The notes beneath the pieces were generated by a model. It ran no database searches. It had not been told where the DNA came from and was given only the letters and a program-made list of their open reading frames with translations. A stretch of DNA of 64,000 bases from Clostridia bacterium (GTDB taxonomy: Bacteria; Bacillota; Clostridia; Oscillospirales; CAG-272). The stretch lies in contig JAFYBN010000014.1 in assembly GCA_017540175.1 (NCBI GenBank), forward strand, positions 39,010 to 103,009, given 5' to 3'. The position numbers were made by a program, and so were the translations under genes. Of this stretch, positions 32,247 to 53,938 are shown piece after piece; positions within the stretch are counted from its first letter, which is position 1; each line of letters starts with the position of its first letter.

Positions 32247-32627
32247 AAGTCACCGTACCGGGGTATGCGGAAATCACGCCGCGGGAAGACGGACGGAGCC
32301 CCGCGAGTCGTTTGGACGGCTGCGCGCGGACGCCATACCGGAGGACATCCGCAAAGGTCTGTTTGAATTTCCGTGCTGCCATCCGTAAACAGGAAACAAT
32401 ATTTCGTGCGGCAGGAATGCGGATAGAAAAGCAGGGGTACCGGCATAAAGAATCTGCCTCCGCAGACAGACCTGTTGTTCATCCGGCCGCTGAGTTCCAA
32501 GAAACCAACTTTAGGCTGACCGTCTTGGGAATCAGGCACAAATGAAAGCTTGAGAGCTTTGAAATACGATCCCGTCCCGCGCAGTCGGCGGAGGGAGAGA
32601 AAAAATCCAAATAAAGGAGTATGCCCC

Positions 32628-35240
32628 ATGGACGAAAGAGAGTTTACCTGCGGAGATTATAGGTATACGCTTGCCGACGACGGCGGGGCGGTGATTGAGA
32701 AATACAGAGGGGAGGAAGCCGGGGAGCTGGAAATCCCGGCGGAGTTGGACGGGCACCGGGTCACGGCGATCGGCAAAGATGCGTTCAGCTGCTGCAGCAG
32801 TCTGACCGACGTGACCATTCCCGACAGCGTGAAAAAGATCGGCGATATCGCCTTCGAATTCTGCGGCTGCCTGGCTTCCGTAACCATTCCCGACAGCGTC
32901 ACGGAAATCGGCGACGGTGCGTTTGGCGGATGCGATATGCTCTCAGAGTTCCACATCTCTCCGCGTCATCCCGTATTCAGCATTATGAACAACGCGCTTG
33001 TCCACAGGGCTGAAAAACGTCTGCTCTGCGTTCCCGGCGCATTCACCGGTCATTATGATATTCCCCGCGGCATTCATATCATTGGTAACTGCGCGGTCTT
33101 CGGATGTAAAAGTCTGACCGACGTGACCATTCCCGACACCGTCACGAAAATCGGCGAAAGCGCGTTCACTCTTTGCATAAACCTCGAATCCGTTATCATT
33201 CCCGACAGCGTCACGGAAATCGGCAGCGGCGCGTTTTATGAATGCCACAGCCTGACCGACGTGACCATTCCCGCCGGCGTTAAGGAAATCGGCTACTGTG
33301 TGTTCGGAGGCTGCAGCAGCCTGACCGACGTGACCATTCCCTCCGGTGTCACTAAAATCGACGACAGCGCATTCTGTCACTGCAGCAGTCTGACCCGCGT
33401 AACCATCCCTGACAGCGTCACGAAAATCTGTAGATCCGCGTTCGCTGATTGCAACAGTCTGACTCGTTTGACCATTCCCGACAGCATTGAGGAAATCGGC
33501 ATCTTTGCATTCCAGAACTGCACCAGACTGACCGACGTGACCATTCCCGACAGTGTCACGAAAATCGGCATCTACGCGTTCGAGAACTGCATCAGACTGA
33601 CCGCTGTGACCATTCCCTCCAGTGTCACAAAAATCAACAACCACGTATTCTGCGGCTGCAAAGGTCTGACCGCCGTGACCATTCCCTCGGGCGTCACGGA
33701 AATCGGCAATGACGCGTTTTCCGGATGCAGAAGCCTGACTGATGTGACCATTCCCTCCAGCGTTAAAGAGATCGGCAATGGCGCGTTTAAAAGCTGCAGA
33801 AGCCTGACTGACGTGACCATTCCCTCCAGCGTTAAAGAGATCGGCAATGGCGCGTTCAAAAGCTGCAGCAGCCTGACTGACGTGACCATTCCGGACAGCG
33901 TCACGGTGATCGGCGGCAGCGCGTTCGAACTCTGCTCAAGCCTGACCGCCGTGACCATTCCCTCGGGCGTCACGGTGATCGGCGAAGGCGTGTTCAAAAG
34001 CTGCAGCAGCCTGACCGACGTGACCATTCCCCCGGGTGTCACGGTGATCGGCGAAGGCAAGTTCAAAAGCTGCACAAGCCTGACCGACGTGACCATTCCC
34101 TCGGGCGTCACCAAGATCGGCAACTGCGCTTTTTCCGGATGCAGAAGCCTGACCGACGTTACCATTCCCTCGGGCGTTAAAGAGATCGGCAACGGCGCGT
34201 TCGAATCCTGCGGCAGCCTGGTCTCCGTAACCATTCCCTCGGGCGTCACGGAAATCGGTGACGGCGCTTTTTCCGGATGCGATATGCTGACCGAGTTCAA
34301 CGTCTCTCCGCGTCATCCCGTATTCAGCATTATGAACAGCGCGCTTGTCCACAGGGCTGAAAAACGTCTGCTCTGCGTTCCCGGCGCATTCACCGGTCAT
34401 TATGATATTCCCCGCGGCATTTATGTCATTGGTTACGGCGCGTTTTTTGGAAACAGCAGCCTGACAGGTGTGAACATTCCCGTCGGCGTTAAAGAGATTG
34501 GCGACTGTGCGTTCGAAGGCTGCACAAGCCTGACCGATGTGACCATTTCCTCGGGCGTTACGGTGATCGGCGACTGCGCGTTCAAAAGCTGCAGCAGCCT
34601 GACCGACGTGACCATTCCCTCGGGCGTTAAAGAGATCGGCAACGGCGCGTTCGAAGGCTGCACAAGCCTGACCGACGTGACCATTCCCTCGGGCGTTAAA
34701 GAGATCGGCAACGGCGCGTTCGAAGGCTGCACAAGCCTGACCGACGTGACCATTCCCTCGGGCGTTAAAGAGATCGGCAATGGCGCGTTTGAATACTGCG
34801 ACAGCCTGGTCTCCGCAACCATTCTCTCCGGCGTCACGGAAATCGGCGACTATGCGTTCGGAGGCTGCAGCAGCCTGGTCTCCGTAACCATTCCCTCCAG
34901 CGTTAAAGAGATCGGCAATGAGGCGTTCGAATTCTGCCGCAGCCTGACCGACGTAACCATTCCCTCCAGCGTCACGGTGATCGCTCGAAACGCGTTCAAA
35001 TTCTGCAGCAGCCTGACCGCCGTGACCATTCCCTCCGGTGTCACAAAAATTGACGACTACGCATTCTGGAACTGCAGCAGCCTGACCGACGTGACCATTC
35101 CCTCCAGCGTTTATGAGATCGGCGACCACGCGTTCTTGGAATGTCCCATCCGGACCGCCGTCGTCGACAGGGGCTCTTACGCGGAGAAGTACTGTACAGA
35201 AAACAACATCCCCTTCGTCTGCGCCGATGAAAAGGCATAA
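32628..35240 (+). CDS. BspA-like leucine-rich repeat protein (LRR_5 type), no signal peptide
   Basis: Start at MDEREFTCGDYRY (ATG 32628, RBS aaggag). 870 aa. Tens of about 23-aa units of the form SLT.VTIP.SV..IG..AF..C. Two-module architecture. Confidence 0.85.
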   Translation: MDEREFTCGDYRYTLADDGGAVIEKYRGEEAGELEIPAELDGHRVTAIGKDAFSCCSSLTDVTIPDSVKKIGDIAFEFCGCLASVTIPDSVTEIGDGAFGGCDMLSEFHISPRHPVFSIMNNALVHRAEKRLLCVPGAFTGHYDIPRGIHIIGNCAVFGCKSLTDVTIPDTVTKIGESAFTLCINLESVIIPDSVTEIGSGAFYECHSLTDVTIPAGVKEIGYCVFGGCSSLTDVTIPSGVTKIDDSAFCHCSSLTRVTIPDSVTKICRSAFADCNSLTRLTIPDSIEEIGIFAFQNCTRLTDVTIPDSVTKIGIYAFENCIRLTAVTIPSSVTKINNHVFCGCKGLTAVTIPSGVTEIGNDAFSGCRSLTDVTIPSSVKEIGNGAFKSCRSLTDVTIPSSVKEIGNGAFKSCSSLTDVTIPDSVTVIGGSAFELCSSLTAVTIPSGVTVIGEGVFKSCSSLTDVTIPPGVTVIGEGKFKSCTSLTDVTIPSGVTKIGNCAFSGCRSLTDVTIPSGVKEIGNGAFESCGSLVSVTIPSGVTEIGDGAFSGCDMLTEFNVSPRHPVFSIMNSALVHRAEKRLLCVPGAFTGHYDIPRGIYVIGYGAFFGNSSLTGVNIPVGVKEIGDCAFEGCTSLTDVTISSGVTVIGDCAFKSCSSLTDVTIPSGVKEIGNGAFEGCTSLTDVTIPSGVKEIGNGAFEGCTSLTDVTIPSGVKEIGNGAFEYCDSLVSATILSGVTEIGDYAFGGCSSLVSVTIPSSVKEIGNEAFEFCRSLTDVTIPSSVTVIARNAFKFCSSLTAVTIPSGVTKIDDYAFWNCSSLTDVTIPSSVYEIGDHAFLECPIRTAVVDRGSYAEKYCTENNIPFVCADEKA
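33727..33864 (+). repeat. Intragenic 2 x 69-bp near-identical tandem repeat (LRR units)
   Basis: Period 69 nt (33727 and 33796) with 2 mismatches seen by eye. Confidence 0.8.
34598..34804 (+). repeat. Intragenic 3 x 69-bp tandem repeat (first two units identical)
   Basis: The unit cctgaccgacgtgaccattccctcgggcgttaaagagatcggcaacggcgcgttcgaaggctgcacaag starts at 34598, 34667 and 34736. Confidence 0.85.
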
Positions 35241-35282
35241 CCGCCGGGAACGGACAGACATCCGAAAAAAGGAGTATGCCCC

Positions 35283-35524
35283 ATGGACGAAAGAGAATTT
35301 ACCTGCGGAGATTATAGGTATACGCTTGCCGACGACGGCGGGGCTGTGATTGAGAAATACCTCGCAGAAGACAATAAGCTGAAAATCCCGGCGGAGCCGG
35401 ACGGGCACCGGCTCACGGCGATCGGCAAGTACGCGTTTTTCGACTGCAGCCTGACCGATGTGACCATCCCCTCCAGCGTTAACAAAATCGGCGAGAGTGC
35501 GTTCTCAAGCCGCGACAACCTGTT
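35283..35524 (+). pseudogene. Truncated BspA-like LRR paralog (5' fragment only)
   Basis: 35269..35360 duplicates 32614..32705 (RBS plus the first 26 codons, 2 mismatches). LRR similarity stops near 35520, where the tRNA-associated repeat array begins. The track ORF 35283..35975 simply reads through the array. Confidence 0.65.
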
Positions 35525-35972
35525 ACACGCGCCCGTTCGATTCCCCCTTATCCGGATCAAAAAAAGAACCTTACGGTTCTTCTTTATGACCCGAGGGGGA
35601 ATCCCTCTCGCCTGCGGGCTCGGTCATGGGCGCCTACACGCGCCCGTTCGATTCCCCCTTTTTCGGATCAAAAAAAGAACCTTGCGGTTCTTTTTTATGA
35701 CCCGAGGGGGAATCGAATTCTCGCCTGCGGGCTCGGTCAGGGTGCGGGAAAACATCCCGAGTTTGCCGCAGGCATACTCAGCCGGGAATGTTTTCTTACG
35801 CGCACCCGTTCGATTTCCCCTTTTCTCGGATCAAAAAAAGAACCTAGCGGTTCTTTTTTATGACCCGAGGGGGAATCGTTCTCGCCTGCGGGCTCGGTCA
35901 TGGGCGCCTACACGCGCCCGTTCGATTCCCCCTTTTCTCGGATCAAAAAAAGAACCTTCCGGTTCTTTTTTA
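35525..35972. repeat. Composite repeat array derived from the tRNA-Glu 3' end (units of 111, 162, 112 bp plus a partial unit)
   Basis: Units start at 35525, 35636, 35798 and 35910. Three extra copies of tgacccgagggggaatc (35587, 35698, 35861). Four copies of the hairpin aaaaaaagaacc-NNNN-ggttctttttt. The invariant 21-mer tctcgcctgcgggctcggtca occurs at 35606, 35719 and 35880. Confidence 0.9.
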
Positions 35973-36044
35973 TGACCCGAGGGGGAATCGAACCCCCGTT
36001 ACTGCCGTGAAAGGGCGGTGTCTTAGCCTCTTGACCATCGGGCC
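35973..36044 (-). tRNA. tRNA-Glu (anticodon UUC)
   Basis: Minus strand GGCCCGATGGTCAAGAGGCTAAGACACCGCCCTTTCACGGCAGTAACGGGGGTTCGATTCCCCCTCGGGTCA. Cloverleaf drawn by hand. 7-bp acceptor stem, loop CTTTCAC, no encoded CCA. C28-A42 mismatch. Confidence 0.9.
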
Positions 36045-36068
36045 ATTATAAATATTCACCCGGTTAGT

Positions 36069-36140
36069 TGACCCGAGGGGGAATCGAACCCCCGTTACTG
36101 CCGTGAAAGGGCGGTGTCTTAACCGCTTGACCATCGGGCC
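36069..36140 (-). tRNA. tRNA-Glu (anticodon UUC), second copy
   Basis: Same as the first copy except for the D-loop (AAGCGGTTAAG versus AAGAGGCTAAG). 24-nt spacer between the copies. Confidence 0.9.
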
Positions 36141-36155
36141 CCGGACCGGGTGAAT

Positions 36156-36232
36156 TGGTAGCGGAAGTTGGACTTGAACCCACGACCTACCGGGTATGAA
36201 CCGGTTGCTCTAGCCAGCTGAGCTATTCCGCC
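36156..36232 (-). tRNA. tRNA-Met (anticodon CAU; elongator type by eye, Ile2-lysidine not excluded)
   Basis: Minus strand GGCGGAATAGCTCAGCTGGCTAGAGCAACCGGTTCATACCCGGTAGGTCGTGGGTTCAAGTCCAACTTCCGCTACCA. CCA is encoded. G1-U72 pair and one G-A mismatch in the T stem. Confidence 0.8.
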
Positions 36233-36270: not shown

Positions 36271-36299
36271 ATTATACCATAAAGGCGGGAGTTTGTCAA
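36271..36299 (-). promoter_or_regulatory. Consensus extended -10 promoter of the tRNA-Met/Glu/Glu operon
   Basis: Minus strand TTGACA (36299-36294), 17 nt, TGgTATAAT (-10 at 36276-36271). Confidence 0.7.
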
Positions 36300-53466: not shown

Positions 53467-53856
53467 ACGCGCGCCCGTTCAAGTCCCACAAACTGCAGCG
53501 AAAAAAATAAAGACAGCTTCCCGACAAAAGGATGCTGTCTTTATGGTGCGGAAGACGGGACCCCCAATTCTCGCCTGCGGGCTCGGTCATGGGGAAAACA
53601 GCCCGGTGGGCTGTTTTCTTACGCGCCCGTTCAAGTCCCACAAACTGCAGCTGAAAATAAAATACAGCCTCCCGACGATGGAAAAGCTGTACTTTATTCT
53701 TCGGAAGACGGGACCCCCAATTCTCGCCTGCGGGCTCGGTCAGGGTGCGGGAAAACATCCCACCGGGATGTTTTCTTACACGCACCCGTTCAAGTCCCAC
53801 AAACTGCAGCAAAAAATGAAAACAGCCTCCCGACGATCGAAAAGCTGTTTATCAAG
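53467..53856. repeat. Composite repeat array derived from the tRNA-Leu(GAG) 3' end (units of 154 and 157 bp plus a partial unit)
   Basis: Units start at 53467, 53621 and 53778. Extra copies of the tRNA 3' end (t[gt]cggaagacggga at 53547 and 53700). Three inverted degenerate copies (gttcaagtccc-acaaactgcagc). Three hairpins with compensating stems. The same 21-mer as in the Glu array occurs at 53569 and 53722. Confidence 0.9.
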
Positions 53857-53938
53857 TGCGGAAGACGGGACTTGAACCCGTATGGGATGCCCCACACGCC
53901 CCTCAAACGTGCGCGTCTGCCAGTTCCGCCACTTCCGC
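53857..53938 (-). tRNA. tRNA-Leu (anticodon GAG)
   Basis: Minus strand GCGGAAGTGGCGGAACTGGCAGACGCGCACGTTTGAGGGGCGTGTGGGGCATCCCATACGGGTTCAAGTCCCGTCTTCCGCA. Class II long variable arm. Loop TTGAGGG by hand folding. No encoded CCA. Confidence 0.85.

Follow-up and report, generated by a model that had tools for sequence, protein, structure and literature searches.

Architecture of the array behind tRNA-Glu

The window, meaning the whole 64,000-nucleotide stretch of DNA analysed here, contains a tRNA-Met(cat), tRNA-Glu(ttc), tRNA-Glu(ttc) operon on the minus strand (35973–36232). One tRNA-Glu(ttc) gene (35973–36044) is proximal to the array described here, the other two genes lie upstream of it, and a strong sigma-70 promoter is located at 36299–36271. 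Downstream of the operon are three full units and one truncated unit, composed of a tRNA-Glu 3′ fragment, a 21-mer, a hairpin, an inverted copy of the T-arm and a terminator. An initial annotation, made from the letters of the sequence alone, had placed an array of tRNA-Glu 3′-end fragments here, and all of its statements about the sequence check out.

The direct copies of the tRNA-Glu 3′ end (TGACCCGAGGGGGAATC; termed A) are found on the minus strand at 35587–35603, 35698–35717 (20 nt) and 35861–35878; their identity to the gene is lost after 17–20 nt, within the T-loop. Next to them, on the plus strand, is the 21-mer TCTCGCCTGCGGGCTCGGTCA (termed the core; 35606–35626, 35719–35739 and 35880–35900), which shows no variation among these positions, is expected 0 times in shuffled sequence and contains a mini-hairpin, GCC-TGCG-GGC. 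The core is followed on the same strand by hairpin H. Two units carry a short form of H (35627–35645, GGGCGC-CTACAC-GCGCCC, and 35901–35919), which is an internal deletion of a 45-nt hairpin retained in other strains; strains L119, L120, L124 and L125 have the full 45-nt H at the latter position. The remaining unit carries a long form (35740–35807) with an extra insertion in its inner stem, and its outer stem reads GGGTGCG/CGCACCC in place of GGGCGC/GCGCCC, the compensated change that the initial annotation had pointed out.

An inverted arm of the type GTTCGATTCCCCC-TTTTC-TCGGATCA (termed A′; plus strand) begins at 35535, 35646, 35808 and 35920. That of the truncated unit (35535–35559) consists of the T-loop and T-stem of tRNA-Glu copied in the sense orientation, then ttatc and a degenerate acceptor strand; the others span 35646–35670, 35808–35833 and 35920–35945, and the last of these forms a palindrome of ~74 nt together with the terminator and the real tRNA end. 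The terminator of the tRNA operon (35946–35971, loop ttcc) recurs as terminator-like hairpins at 35834–35859 (loop tagc), 35671–35696 (loop ttgc) and 35560–35585 (loop ttac; bidirectional), all four being of the form AAAAAGAACC-NNNN-GGTTCTTTTT, for which the chance expectation is 0. Because they are flanked by A/T, the array terminators are missed by a simple terminator scan. At the distal end of the array, the leftmost unit is cut off within its hairpin at 35524, leaving a remnant of the 3′ half of H (tacacgcgccc, plus strand, 35524–35534) fused to a truncated LRR-paralogue open reading frame (35283–35523).

The 21-mer is also present at 53569 and 53722, positions absent from the initial annotation. 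These cores belong to a second array of the same family (53467–53856, plus strand), made of a truncated unit and two further units and situated behind tRNA-Leu(gag) (53857–53938, minus strand). Here the arms reproduce the tRNA-Leu 3′ end (tgcggaagacgggac / gttcaagtccca), with terminators of the Leu-locus type; thus, inside the window, the flanks are Glu-type or Leu-type according to the local gene. In total, the window contains 5 exact cores against 0 expected.

A dispersed family of hairpin repeat elements

Both arrays are built of units of a widespread family of small non-coding hairpin repeat elements that was previously undescribed and uncatalogued; a literature search by the 21-mer string and keywords returned no description of it. 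The conserved module is ~80 nt long and comprises the 21-nt core with its mini-hairpin, a 45-nt bulged hairpin with two covarying stems, and a short TTCG tail resembling a T-loop. Exact copies of the 21-mer are present in at least 117 species genomes or genome loci, almost all of them Clostridia metagenome-assembled genomes from gut or rumen. Of 135 copies, 52 lie at most 700 nt downstream of a tRNA (35) or tmRNA (17) gene, and a further 12 have T-arm-like arms. The tRNA-linked copies span ~18 anticodon types of 10 amino-acid identities, in addition to tmRNA. All 52 linked copies share one orientation relative to the gene; this constancy excludes an invertible promoter.

About half of all copies lie away from tRNAs, and no direct repeat is evident at these sites. 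The module is identical in kind at every tRNA and away from tRNAs, where its tail is still T-loop-like (CCGCTTCGCTACC versus CCGTTCGAATCC). It is also inserted at position 24/25 of tRNA-Leu 5′ fragments, and in an unrelated repeat, the difference between empty and filled copies is precisely the core, hairpin and tail. The family is a dispersed mosaic of hairpin repeats, MITE-like in being small, non-coding and multi-copy and in having empty sites. The initial annotation had considered a BIME/MITE-like palindromic family seeded by the tRNA terminator: the dispersed mosaic is as it suggested, but seeding by the terminator is contradicted by the presence of the same module at every tRNA and off tRNAs. 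A MITE defined by terminal inverted repeats and a fixed-length target-site duplication was rejected, as arms (8–13 bp, copies of the target) are confined to the tRNA-linked class and the repeats vary in length.

The initial annotation would have been refuted by a 21-mer found nowhere else and a copy number fixed in all relatives. Instead, the 21-mer is widespread across genomes, and strains differ in the array, in tRNA-Glu copy number as well as in the form of the hairpin. The Leu array is fixed: every strain seen carries it, and none has an empty allele. In species whose SmpB proteins are 52–72% identical, the hairpin has a median identity of 77%, above that of the neighbouring tmRNA or terminators. 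Five arrays include a degenerate copy, which is the distal one in four of them.

The flanks follow the local tRNA or tmRNA gene

At tRNA and tmRNA genes, the order along the core strand is outer terminator, displaced tRNA 3′-end copy (running from the 3′ terminus into the T-loop), core, hairpin, inverted copy of the local T-loop and T-stem, inner terminator and intact tRNA. The direct repeat always ends in the T-loop, and the gene is left intact. At T-loop positions that vary, the flanks match the local gene with an identity of 0.95–1.0, compared with 0.28–0.71 for other loci. Over 20 nt, the displaced fragments share 96% identity with their gene, and 26 of 41 match it throughout. The two adjacent terminators usually differ, being less than 60% alike in 18 of 41 loci; in loci L113, L080 and L081 they are identical. 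The direct repeats of tRNA-linked copies range from 18 to 100 nt. A target duplication of fixed length is ruled out, as repeat length tracks terminator size. A retroelement with a primer-binding-site-like copy, or a copy of a mature tRNA, was likewise rejected: the repeat extends into the terminator of the gene itself, and where the gene does not encode CCA, the copy has none either.

The inverted T-arm copy is found downstream of 31 of 65 tRNA and tmRNA genes with a core and of 0 of 35 without one. The two arms of the palindrome formed by inverted arm, terminator and tRNA end differ in length by no more than 5 nt in 31 of 36 loci, and the inverted copy itself spans 10 to 21 nt. The linker joining the T-loop part to the core varies from 0 to 7 nt, even among units of one array, which is unlike conservative site-specific recombination unless the junctions decayed after insertion. 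The left junction has no target consensus beyond the T-loop class. Units are heterogeneous in other ways: in L032 the inner units are without terminator and acceptor parts, and L046, L075 and L003 have a left arm of just 8–9 nt. Together with the identical terminators, these features indicate that plain duplication and short terminal repeats also contribute.

A proposed cassette-like mobile element at tRNA T-loops

Among the explanations put forward in the initial annotation, accretion of miniature non-autonomous integrative elements is the best supported, given the T-loop-ending repeats at ~18 anticodon types and tmRNA, the 96% fragment identity, the differing terminators and the arrays. We give about an even chance to a specific version, in which a non-autonomous, cassette-like element inserts at tRNA T-loops and is mobilized in trans, the enzyme and the exact mechanism being postulated. 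The cassette would comprise the core, hairpin and inverted T-arm together with a terminator and a tRNA 3′ end. Recombination within the T-loop of a tRNA gene would place it there, and since the cassette would bring a replacement 3′ end and terminator, the tRNA would stay intact and the earlier 3′ end would be pushed outward. Arrays would then grow by repeated insertion or by unequal recombination between direct repeats, and gene conversion and deletions would reshape the units. The hairpin and core may act as a DNA structure, single-stranded or cruciform, recognized by a recombinase or transposase whose gene lies elsewhere in the genome, and the inverted T-arm may allow the element to fold into a mimic of its target.

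We regard as rather unlikely a fuller form of this mimicry, in which the folded DNA hairpin imitates the target tRNA 3′ end (T-arm stem, unpaired acceptor bubble and terminator stem) and one conserved module of core and hairpin is read by an unlinked recombinase or HUH nuclease of the host, so that a ~130-nt integrative cassette of a new kind retargets to at least ~18 anticodon types and tmRNA, each insertion leaving a spare tRNA 3′ end. The host might use such spare ends as buffers or decoys against phages and islands whose integration targets these ends. Against the cassette reading stand the lack of a linked enzyme and of a phage or plasmid vehicle in the searches described below, the imprecise junctions, the heterogeneity of the units and the many copies away from tRNAs. 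In addition, a double-stranded circle of 130–160 bp is physically awkward, arms matching ~18 anticodon types would demand many retargeting events, and no mobility has been caught, the Leu array being invariant in this respect.

A doubtful alternative dispenses with a dedicated enzyme. A MITE- or REP-like module would land near tRNA terminators, template switching during replication and gene conversion at the natural quasi-palindromes of T-arm and terminator would generate the direct and inverted copies, much as in a tandem inversion duplication, and unequal crossing-over would build the arrays. This route scales readily to many tRNA types, and it is favoured by the direct–inverted–direct arrangement bounded exactly by T-arm and terminator, the varying inverted copies (10 to 21 nt) and linkers, the tail that is T-loop-like even away from tRNAs, and the loci with identical duplicated terminators, arms of only 8–9 nt or terminator-less units. 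However, three coordinated template switches would be needed, independently at dozens of loci. The unrelated terminators in 18 of 41 loci, where the adjoining 20-nt fragment nevertheless equals the gene, also argue against it, as does the absence of the acceptor part from the inverted copy even in the otherwise young-looking L113, L080 and L081. Finally, to the left of the outer terminator, traces of earlier units occur no more often (9 of 46) than in control stretches (7 of 43); the same comparison rejects the possibility that 'single' units are decayed two-unit arrays.

Covariation of the hairpin points to a DNA structure

Covariation in the 45-nt hairpin is strong. Across 71 distinct hairpins, 95.1% of cells pair, and changes occur on both sides in 14 of 16 pairs. 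There are 234 double-sided changes compared with 7 one-sided ones, a value reached in 0 of 500 shuffles. G·T pairs are rare on both strands (0.6% and 0.9%). Covariation is thus almost wholly Watson–Crick and symmetric between strands, which points to a structure at the level of DNA rather than RNA, as the cassette reading would have it.

It is quite improbable that the units are instead expressed as RNA. Under this explanation, the inter-terminator segments would be small RNAs produced by read-through of the tRNA operon. Each would fold into a three-way junction resembling a tRNA minihelix and could serve as decoy or processing substrate, or pair in antisense with the tRNA 3′ end. RNAfold predicts for the window units the 7-bp acceptor-like stem, 10-bp T-arm stem, hairpin and mini-hairpin that the initial annotation had proposed, and the folds are stable on the tRNA strand (ΔG −46 to −65 kcal/mol, z −4.5 to −5.9). 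Other points in favour are a single G–U pair that favours the tRNA strand, the terminator closing every unit, the displaced 3′ fragment kept identical to the tRNA, and the strong promoter of the operon. However, the opposite strand folds nearly as well (z −3.1 to −5.0). The acceptor-like stem pairs in the window units but is no feature of the family, identity in the acceptor part being 0.3–0.5 compared with 0.2–0.3 in controls. No unit has an intact 7-nt T-loop, since core and hairpin split it by 70–120 nt. The RF00005 tRNA model (gathering score 29 bits) scores only the three real tRNAs and no unit even at E up to 10, and none of the 4,227 models of Rfam 15 scores the units. In addition, no internal promoter was found in the array, and the module also occurs in non-tRNA repeats, in either context. 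The decoy or processing-substrate RNAs that the initial annotation had listed as a possibility are therefore unsupported: the acceptor stem is limited to the window, G–U covariation is absent, the tRNA model is scoreless and the array lacks a promoter.

Other RNA candidates were rejected as well. A tRNA, class II tRNA or permuted tRNA on either strand lacks a T-stem partner and leaves the covariance model without a score. For a hammerhead or other ribozyme, the flanking CTGATGAG motifs were judged by eye; the GAAA and stem II parts are missing, and the motif belongs to a separate repeat, R2.

Partner enzyme, vehicles and integrated islands

The initial annotation had stated that the window holds no integrase or transposase, and tblastn with approximate query sequences for IS200 TnpA and XerD found no match there, which agrees weakly with the statement. 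Within 4 kb of copies there is no recurrent integrase, transposase or other open reading frame family, clustering of the surrounding open reading frames yielding only SmpB and generic ABC proteins. A XerD-like open reading frame was detected by tblastn (approximate query) in only 2 of ~140 loci, more than 2 kb away, and an approximate IS200 TnpA query found no IS200-like gene in ~1 Mb of related loci. Phage and plasmid collections yielded no copies and no related autonomous element. Among viral contigs, the exact 21-mer is present in 1 and a hairpin-only pattern in 8; these hairpin matches lie in R2-like repeat contexts, none of them beside a tRNA.

It is very unlikely, in our view, that the units are att-site scars, meaning remnants of large integrative elements or prophages in the tRNA 3′ end after loss of their interior (CIME-like). 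The 3′ ends of tRNA and tmRNA genes are classic integration sites, direct repeats of the 3′ end are present, and in L118, L001 and L028 the tRNA-proximal copy has foreign DNA or a prophage joined within it. Yet the interior is one structured module of ~80 nt at ~18 anticodon types in more than 100 species and not a set of random deletion end points. Furthermore, none of the islands observed is a full-length one with the core at its boundaries; those present lack the module and are joined elsewhere, in the acceptor part. The module is also missing from the phage and plasmid collections. A single local duplication or an assembly artefact with nothing wider behind it has virtually no chance of being correct: short-read contigs of this species do often break in arrays, but the same junctions and units recur in independent assemblies from several samples, the window holds a second locus and the family is present in at least 117 other genomes.

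Comparison with known systems

Integrative elements at tRNA genes have reportedly been divided into sublocation classes by Williams in 2002, and tandem accretion involving non-autonomous CIME-type elements is known from ICESt1. Like elements that cross over in the T-loop and CIMEs, the Clostridia element targets the 3′ part of tRNA or tmRNA genes, generates a direct repeat from T-loop to 3′ end, would restore the gene with an element-borne copy, forms tandem arrays and is non-autonomous. In contrast to them, its unit is only 110–160 bp, without a nearby integrase or a carrier phage, ICE or plasmid; it has one core for ~18 anticodon types and an integral inverted T-arm copy; its junctions are imprecise and its core module is also found at non-tRNA sites.

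The attC sites of integron cassettes and the attP(+) hairpin of CTXφ (an IMEX) are folded single-stranded recombination sites. The resemblance lies in arrays of short cassettes that each end in an imperfect palindrome unpaired at its centre, in structure being kept over sequence and, on the proposed mechanism, in a folded strand that mimics a double-stranded target and in an enzyme acting in trans. Unlike these systems, the Clostridia element targets the tRNA T-loop and not attI or dif, has a strict 21-mer and shows no link to IntI or Xer. Membership of the attC class (5′-RYYYAAC...GTTRRRY-3′) was rejected, as the palindromes read 5′-GTTCGAA...TTCGAAC-3′, with the opposite GTT/AAC polarity, and no integrase is nearby.

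Tandem inversion duplications at quasi-palindromes, studied in the Roth and Lovett laboratories, share the direct–inverted–direct triplication with junctions at two short palindromes; they differ from the Clostridia element in that the latter has a foreign conserved module at one junction, a partial inverted copy and recurrence over many loci and species. As in tRNA minihelices, a window unit can pair a 7-bp acceptor-like stem stacked on the T-stem with the discriminator A at its end, but it has an insert of 70–120 nt for a T-loop, most members lack the acceptor pairing and RNA-type covariation is absent.

REP, BIME and REPIN repeats are extragenic palindromic units tagged by GTAG or CGTC and mobilized by RAYT (HUH, Y1) transposases (PMC3733652); the survey of GTAG repeats lists other phyla and does not mention Firmicutes (PMC3733652). 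Read on the minus strand, the Clostridia hairpin is GGTAGTGAA-stem-loop-stem-GAG, with the A of CTAC in ~60% of 77 hairpins, a GTAG-like tag beside the inner stem. G·T pairs are nearly absent from it, whereas they are frequent in the REP survey (PMC3733652). Like REP-type repeats, the family consists of short extragenic hairpin repeats 3′ of genes, with covarying stems and in mosaics with other repeat modules, and its partner enzyme, if any, would be single-copy and unlinked. Unlike them, it is larger and bipartite (21-nt core and bulged hairpin), takes its flanks from the target tRNA, and has no RAYT near its copies in ~1 Mb of related loci searched with an approximate query.

Implications

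The 3′ ends of tRNA and tmRNA genes are the main landing sites of prophages and genomic islands. In many abundant gut and rumen Clostridia, a tiny gene-less element occupies this position as well and apparently rebuilds the tRNA end each time. If the proposed mechanism is true, bacterial mobile DNA would gain a further kind, a structure-guided, trans-mobilized cassette system. The mechanism would also point to a novel recombinase recognizing a DNA hairpin together with the T-loop, account for a class of metagenome assembly breaks beside tRNA genes and supply markers for strain typing. If the element is only a decaying repeat, the finding nonetheless helps to annotate hundreds of uncultured genomes.

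Finally, Rfam scans of the window and 55 related loci returned only tRNA, tmRNA, one T-box and Gut-1, the last adjacent to the elements without overlap. Gut-1 motifs adjoin the outer terminator in some lineages and the tRNA terminator at an element-free site, and this orphan motif is now assigned a defined genomic neighbourhood.

Two tRNA-linked arrays in the window

The tRNA-Met(cat), tRNA-Glu(ttc) and tRNA-Glu(ttc) genes (35973–36232, minus strand; ARAGORN and Rfam) form an operon whose promoter is a perfect TTGACA-17-TATAAT sigma-70 consensus with an extended −10 TG (36299–36271, minus strand). The Glu array lies on the lower-coordinate side, that is, downstream, of this operon. The repeat finder and direct reading bear out the initial annotation of its parts: there are three extra copies of the final 17–20 nt of tRNA-Glu (35587, 35698 and 35861) and four inverted T-loop/T-stem/acceptor copies. 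Four hairpins of the form AAAAAGAACC-NNNN-GGTTCTTTTT (loops ttac, ttgc, tagc and ttcc) and three exact copies of the 21-mer TCTCGCCTGCGGGCTCGGTCA, here called the core, are likewise present, with less than one of each expected in shuffled sequence. A simple terminator scan overlooks all four of these A/T-flanked hairpins. At the distal end of the array, a unit is cut inside its hairpin and fused to an LRR paralogue at codon ~80. The adjoining region (32550–35523) encodes an 896-aa BspA-like LRR protein followed by this paralogue, which has an identical N terminus (MDEREFTCGDYRYTLADDGGAVIEKY...) and stops after ~80 codons, exactly at the array start; the called 230-aa ORF continues through the repeats.

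The core is also found at 53569 and 53722, immediately downstream of tRNA-Leu(gag) (53857–53938). This Leu array (53467–53938, including the tRNA gene) comprises one truncated and two full units. Its architecture matches that of the Glu array, and its direct fragment (TGCGGAAGACGGGAC), inverted arm (GTTCAAGTCCCA...) and terminators are all of the Leu-locus type. Because Leu flanks occur at Leu and Glu flanks at Glu, the core and the hairpin that follows it emerge as the common module, with surroundings copied from the neighbouring tRNA. The distal Leu unit is likewise truncated inside the hairpin, and the array is invariant among strain contigs, SNPs excepted.

Distribution of the core

When one genome per species is scanned for exact matches, the 21-mer turns up at no fewer than 117 loci, compared with ~0.3 chance matches expected in the scanned collection by our own arithmetic. 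The matches listed come almost entirely from gut or rumen MAGs of Clostridia (Oscillospiraceae, Christensenellales and ‘Eubacteriales’). Three non-Clostridia matches, in Actinomycetota, Gemmatimonadales and Saccharibacillus contigs (L006, L034 and L072), come without the hairpin and look like chance in GC-rich sequence. We counted contexts for 135 exact-core copies, taking linkage as a position ≤700 nt downstream of a gene. In fixed orientation, 35 copies follow tRNA genes (~18 anticodon types and 10 amino-acid identities) and 17 follow tmRNA genes; T-arm-like arms at contig ends or beside disrupted genes accompany 12, another repeat, R2, contains 11, and 60 are in other places. Since copies were ascertained through the exact 21-mer, core conservation is overstated and young copies are over-represented. 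The genomes compared are mostly fragmented MAGs, and short-read metagenome contigs of the window's species (L122, L126, L127 and L133–L136) terminate inside arrays, which appear to break assemblies beside tRNA genes.

Insertion polymorphism

The module is dispersed, structured and non-coding, and its insertion is polymorphic. R2 is found both empty and filled, the difference being exactly the core, the hairpin and the GCGCTTCGCG tail. Three loci (L009, L025 and L064) have, upstream of the intact gene, a tRNA-Leu 5′ fragment that the module splits at position 24/25, so the tRNA leader of the promoter-proximal transcript would include the element. The tail of the module is T-loop-like at non-tRNA sites as well (CCGCTTCGCTACC compared with CCGTTCGAATCC). 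In L007, L029, L051, L099, L103 and other loci, copies of R2 itself (CACCTCATC-hairpin-AGCT-TCCCCTCAAGGGGAAGCC) are arranged as REPIN-like inverted doublets. The split fragment at L009, L025, L064 and L047 duplicates the 5′ part of tRNA-Leu(caa/cag) and is colinear with the intact copy, upstream of it.

Strains of the window's species vary in hairpin form and tRNA-Glu copy number, and a full 45-nt hairpin variant stands in other strains in place of the window's short form. In strain contig L123, SpoIIR and tRNA-Met are identical, but the tRNA-Glu genes are others, one extra tRNA is present and there are zero repeat units. Strain contigs L119–L125 also differ in the tandem duplication of tRNA-Glu (96-nt spacing), L121 having a single copy.

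Origin of the tRNA-derived flanks

At tRNA and tmRNA genes, the position and orientation of the module are fixed at the T-loop, the direct and inverted arms are locally derived and arrays form. The direct repeat always stops in the T-loop, reading ...GGGATTCG, a 0–7-nt linker and the core where the gene has ...GGGATTCG-AACCC. Over 20 nt, the displaced fragment is 96% identical to the gene (identical in 26/41), and the following 38 nt, which hold the terminators, are <60% alike in 18/41 loci and ≥85% alike in 11/41. The inverted arm, at variable T-loop positions, has 0.95–1.0 identity to the local gene versus 0.28–0.71 for other loci. In its acceptor part, identity drops to 0.3–0.5, so the 7-bp acceptor-like stem proposed initially, which does pair in the window, is an exception. 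Inverted arm, terminator and tRNA end form a palindrome with the T-arm stem outside, a mismatched middle and the terminator stem inside, its arm lengths equal within 5 nt in 31 of 36 loci. Inverted T-arm copies stand behind 31/65 t(m)RNA genes with the core versus 0/35 without it.

We see about an even chance that core, hairpin, inverted T-arm, terminator and tRNA 3′ end make up a cassette. Recombination would put this block into the T-loop, where it would restore the tRNA gene and push away the old 3′ end with its terminator; the inverted arm would let a folded single strand imitate the double-stranded target. Such a cassette fits a fragment identical to the gene although the terminators are unrelated, the multi-unit arrays of L118 and L028, in which the distal-most terminator is unique and the inner ones are alike, and the distal position of the degenerate copy in four of five arrays. 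It also fits the position of Gut-1, which, in lineages that have it, abuts the outer terminator as it abuts the tRNA terminator at an element-free site. This polarity argument draws on six filled loci (L104 1203–1386, L036 3758–3830, L113 4134–4306, L063 6036–6212, L005 1556–1752 and L044 6969–7046) and one empty locus (L107 14–86, with Gut-1 immediately behind the tRNA terminator and no unit); at gathering score, Gut-1 is absent from 40 further loci. Gut-1 (RF01706) is an orphan RNA motif, often abutting units as an inverted pair, and is built from three small hairpins with a locus-specific 7-mer (GTGAAGT, GTGAAAT or GTGATAT) after each.

Variable junctions, an inverted copy of variable extent, arms of only 8–9 nt at some loci and units lacking terminators in L032 would also suit a REP/MITE-like module with T-loop-like ends that lands near terminators without a dedicated site-specific step, its arms arising where the palindromes of T-arm and terminator undergo template switching or gene conversion. 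We regard this main alternative as rather unlikely; against it stand the unrelated terminator pairs and a negative test for remnants of older units to the left of the outer terminator (9 of 46, compared with 7 of 43 control stretches).

Structure of the core and hairpin

A typical element reads core, GGGTCGG-CTC-TGACAGTCC-ACC-GGACTGTCA-TTCACTA-CCGACCC and then GTTCGAATCCC; hairpins in the window are of a deletion form or of a GGGAAAACA...TGTTTTCTTACA variant. Pairing holds in 95.1% of cells across 71 distinct canonical hairpins, and 14 of the 16 pairs have changed on both sides. We counted 234 double-sided changes, compared with 62 in shuffles (0/500 reach the observed value), and only 7 one-sided (wobble) changes; sliding the partners abolishes the signal. 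G·T pairs account for 0.6% when the core strand is read and for 0.9% when its complement is read. The asymmetric internal loops (CTC and TTCACTA) are conserved in sequence, and a mini-hairpin within the core covaries in diverged copies (GCC-TGCG-GGC, CTCGCC-TGCG-GGCGAG, TTGCC-TGCG-GGCAA and GCGCG-ACCTA-CGCGC). The covariation of the main hairpin, Watson–Crick-only and symmetric between strands, suggests, without proving, that it acts as DNA (a hairpin or a cruciform) and departs from what structured RNAs typically show.

That the units act as RNA decoys is improbable. RNAfold recovers the minihelix-like pairing of the initial annotation on the tRNA strand (z −4.5 to −5.9), with the opposite strand nearly as good; we found no promoter inside the Glu array and no match to the element among Rfam families. 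Between species with SmpB identities of only 52–72%, hairpins linked to ssrA share a median identity of 77% (maximum 94%) and by the same crude measure are more alike than the tmRNA gene or terminators, which points to constraint or else to recent spread. Copies of a short-hairpin variant of the module at L020 358 and 5169 and at L082 1443 precede the start of a duplicated gene (ATGCCGTTTTATCCGACG...) by ~90 nt; they may sit there in a regulatory setting or as hitch-hikers.

Partner genes and related systems

No protein family recurs beside copies except SmpB, the usual neighbour of ssrA. With approximate IS200 TnpA and XerD queries, tblastn returned only two XerD-like ORFs, both >2 kb away. 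Neither the 50,697 phage records nor the 72,556 plasmid records contain the element. In 2.9 million viral contigs, there is one match to the exact 21-mer, in the host flank of a prophage joined inside a tRNA-end copy, and there are eight to the hairpin-only pattern, mostly in contexts resembling R2 repeats and never beside a tRNA. Classical island scars, as an account of the tRNA fragments, are very improbable, and an artefact is excluded.

Our literature searches found no description of the element. In its workings, it comes closest to a REP/BIME-type hairpin repeat joined to a non-autonomous, tRNA-targeting integrative element, but it belongs to neither: the GTAG tag of the former is only partly present, and the integrase of the latter was sought beside the copies and is lacking. 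In CTXphi and attC, a folded single strand mimics a double-stranded target, and the inverted arm is predicted to permit a similar fold; the element differs from attC in box polarity and in having no linked integrase. We regard it as a variation on these known kinds rather than a system of a new category.

At L118 (11850–11900), L001 and L028, foreign AT-rich DNA, in L118 a predicted prophage, is joined inside the tRNA-proximal 3′-end copy after 9–15 nt, and thus these t(m)RNA ends also serve other integrative elements, which enter at another sublocation.
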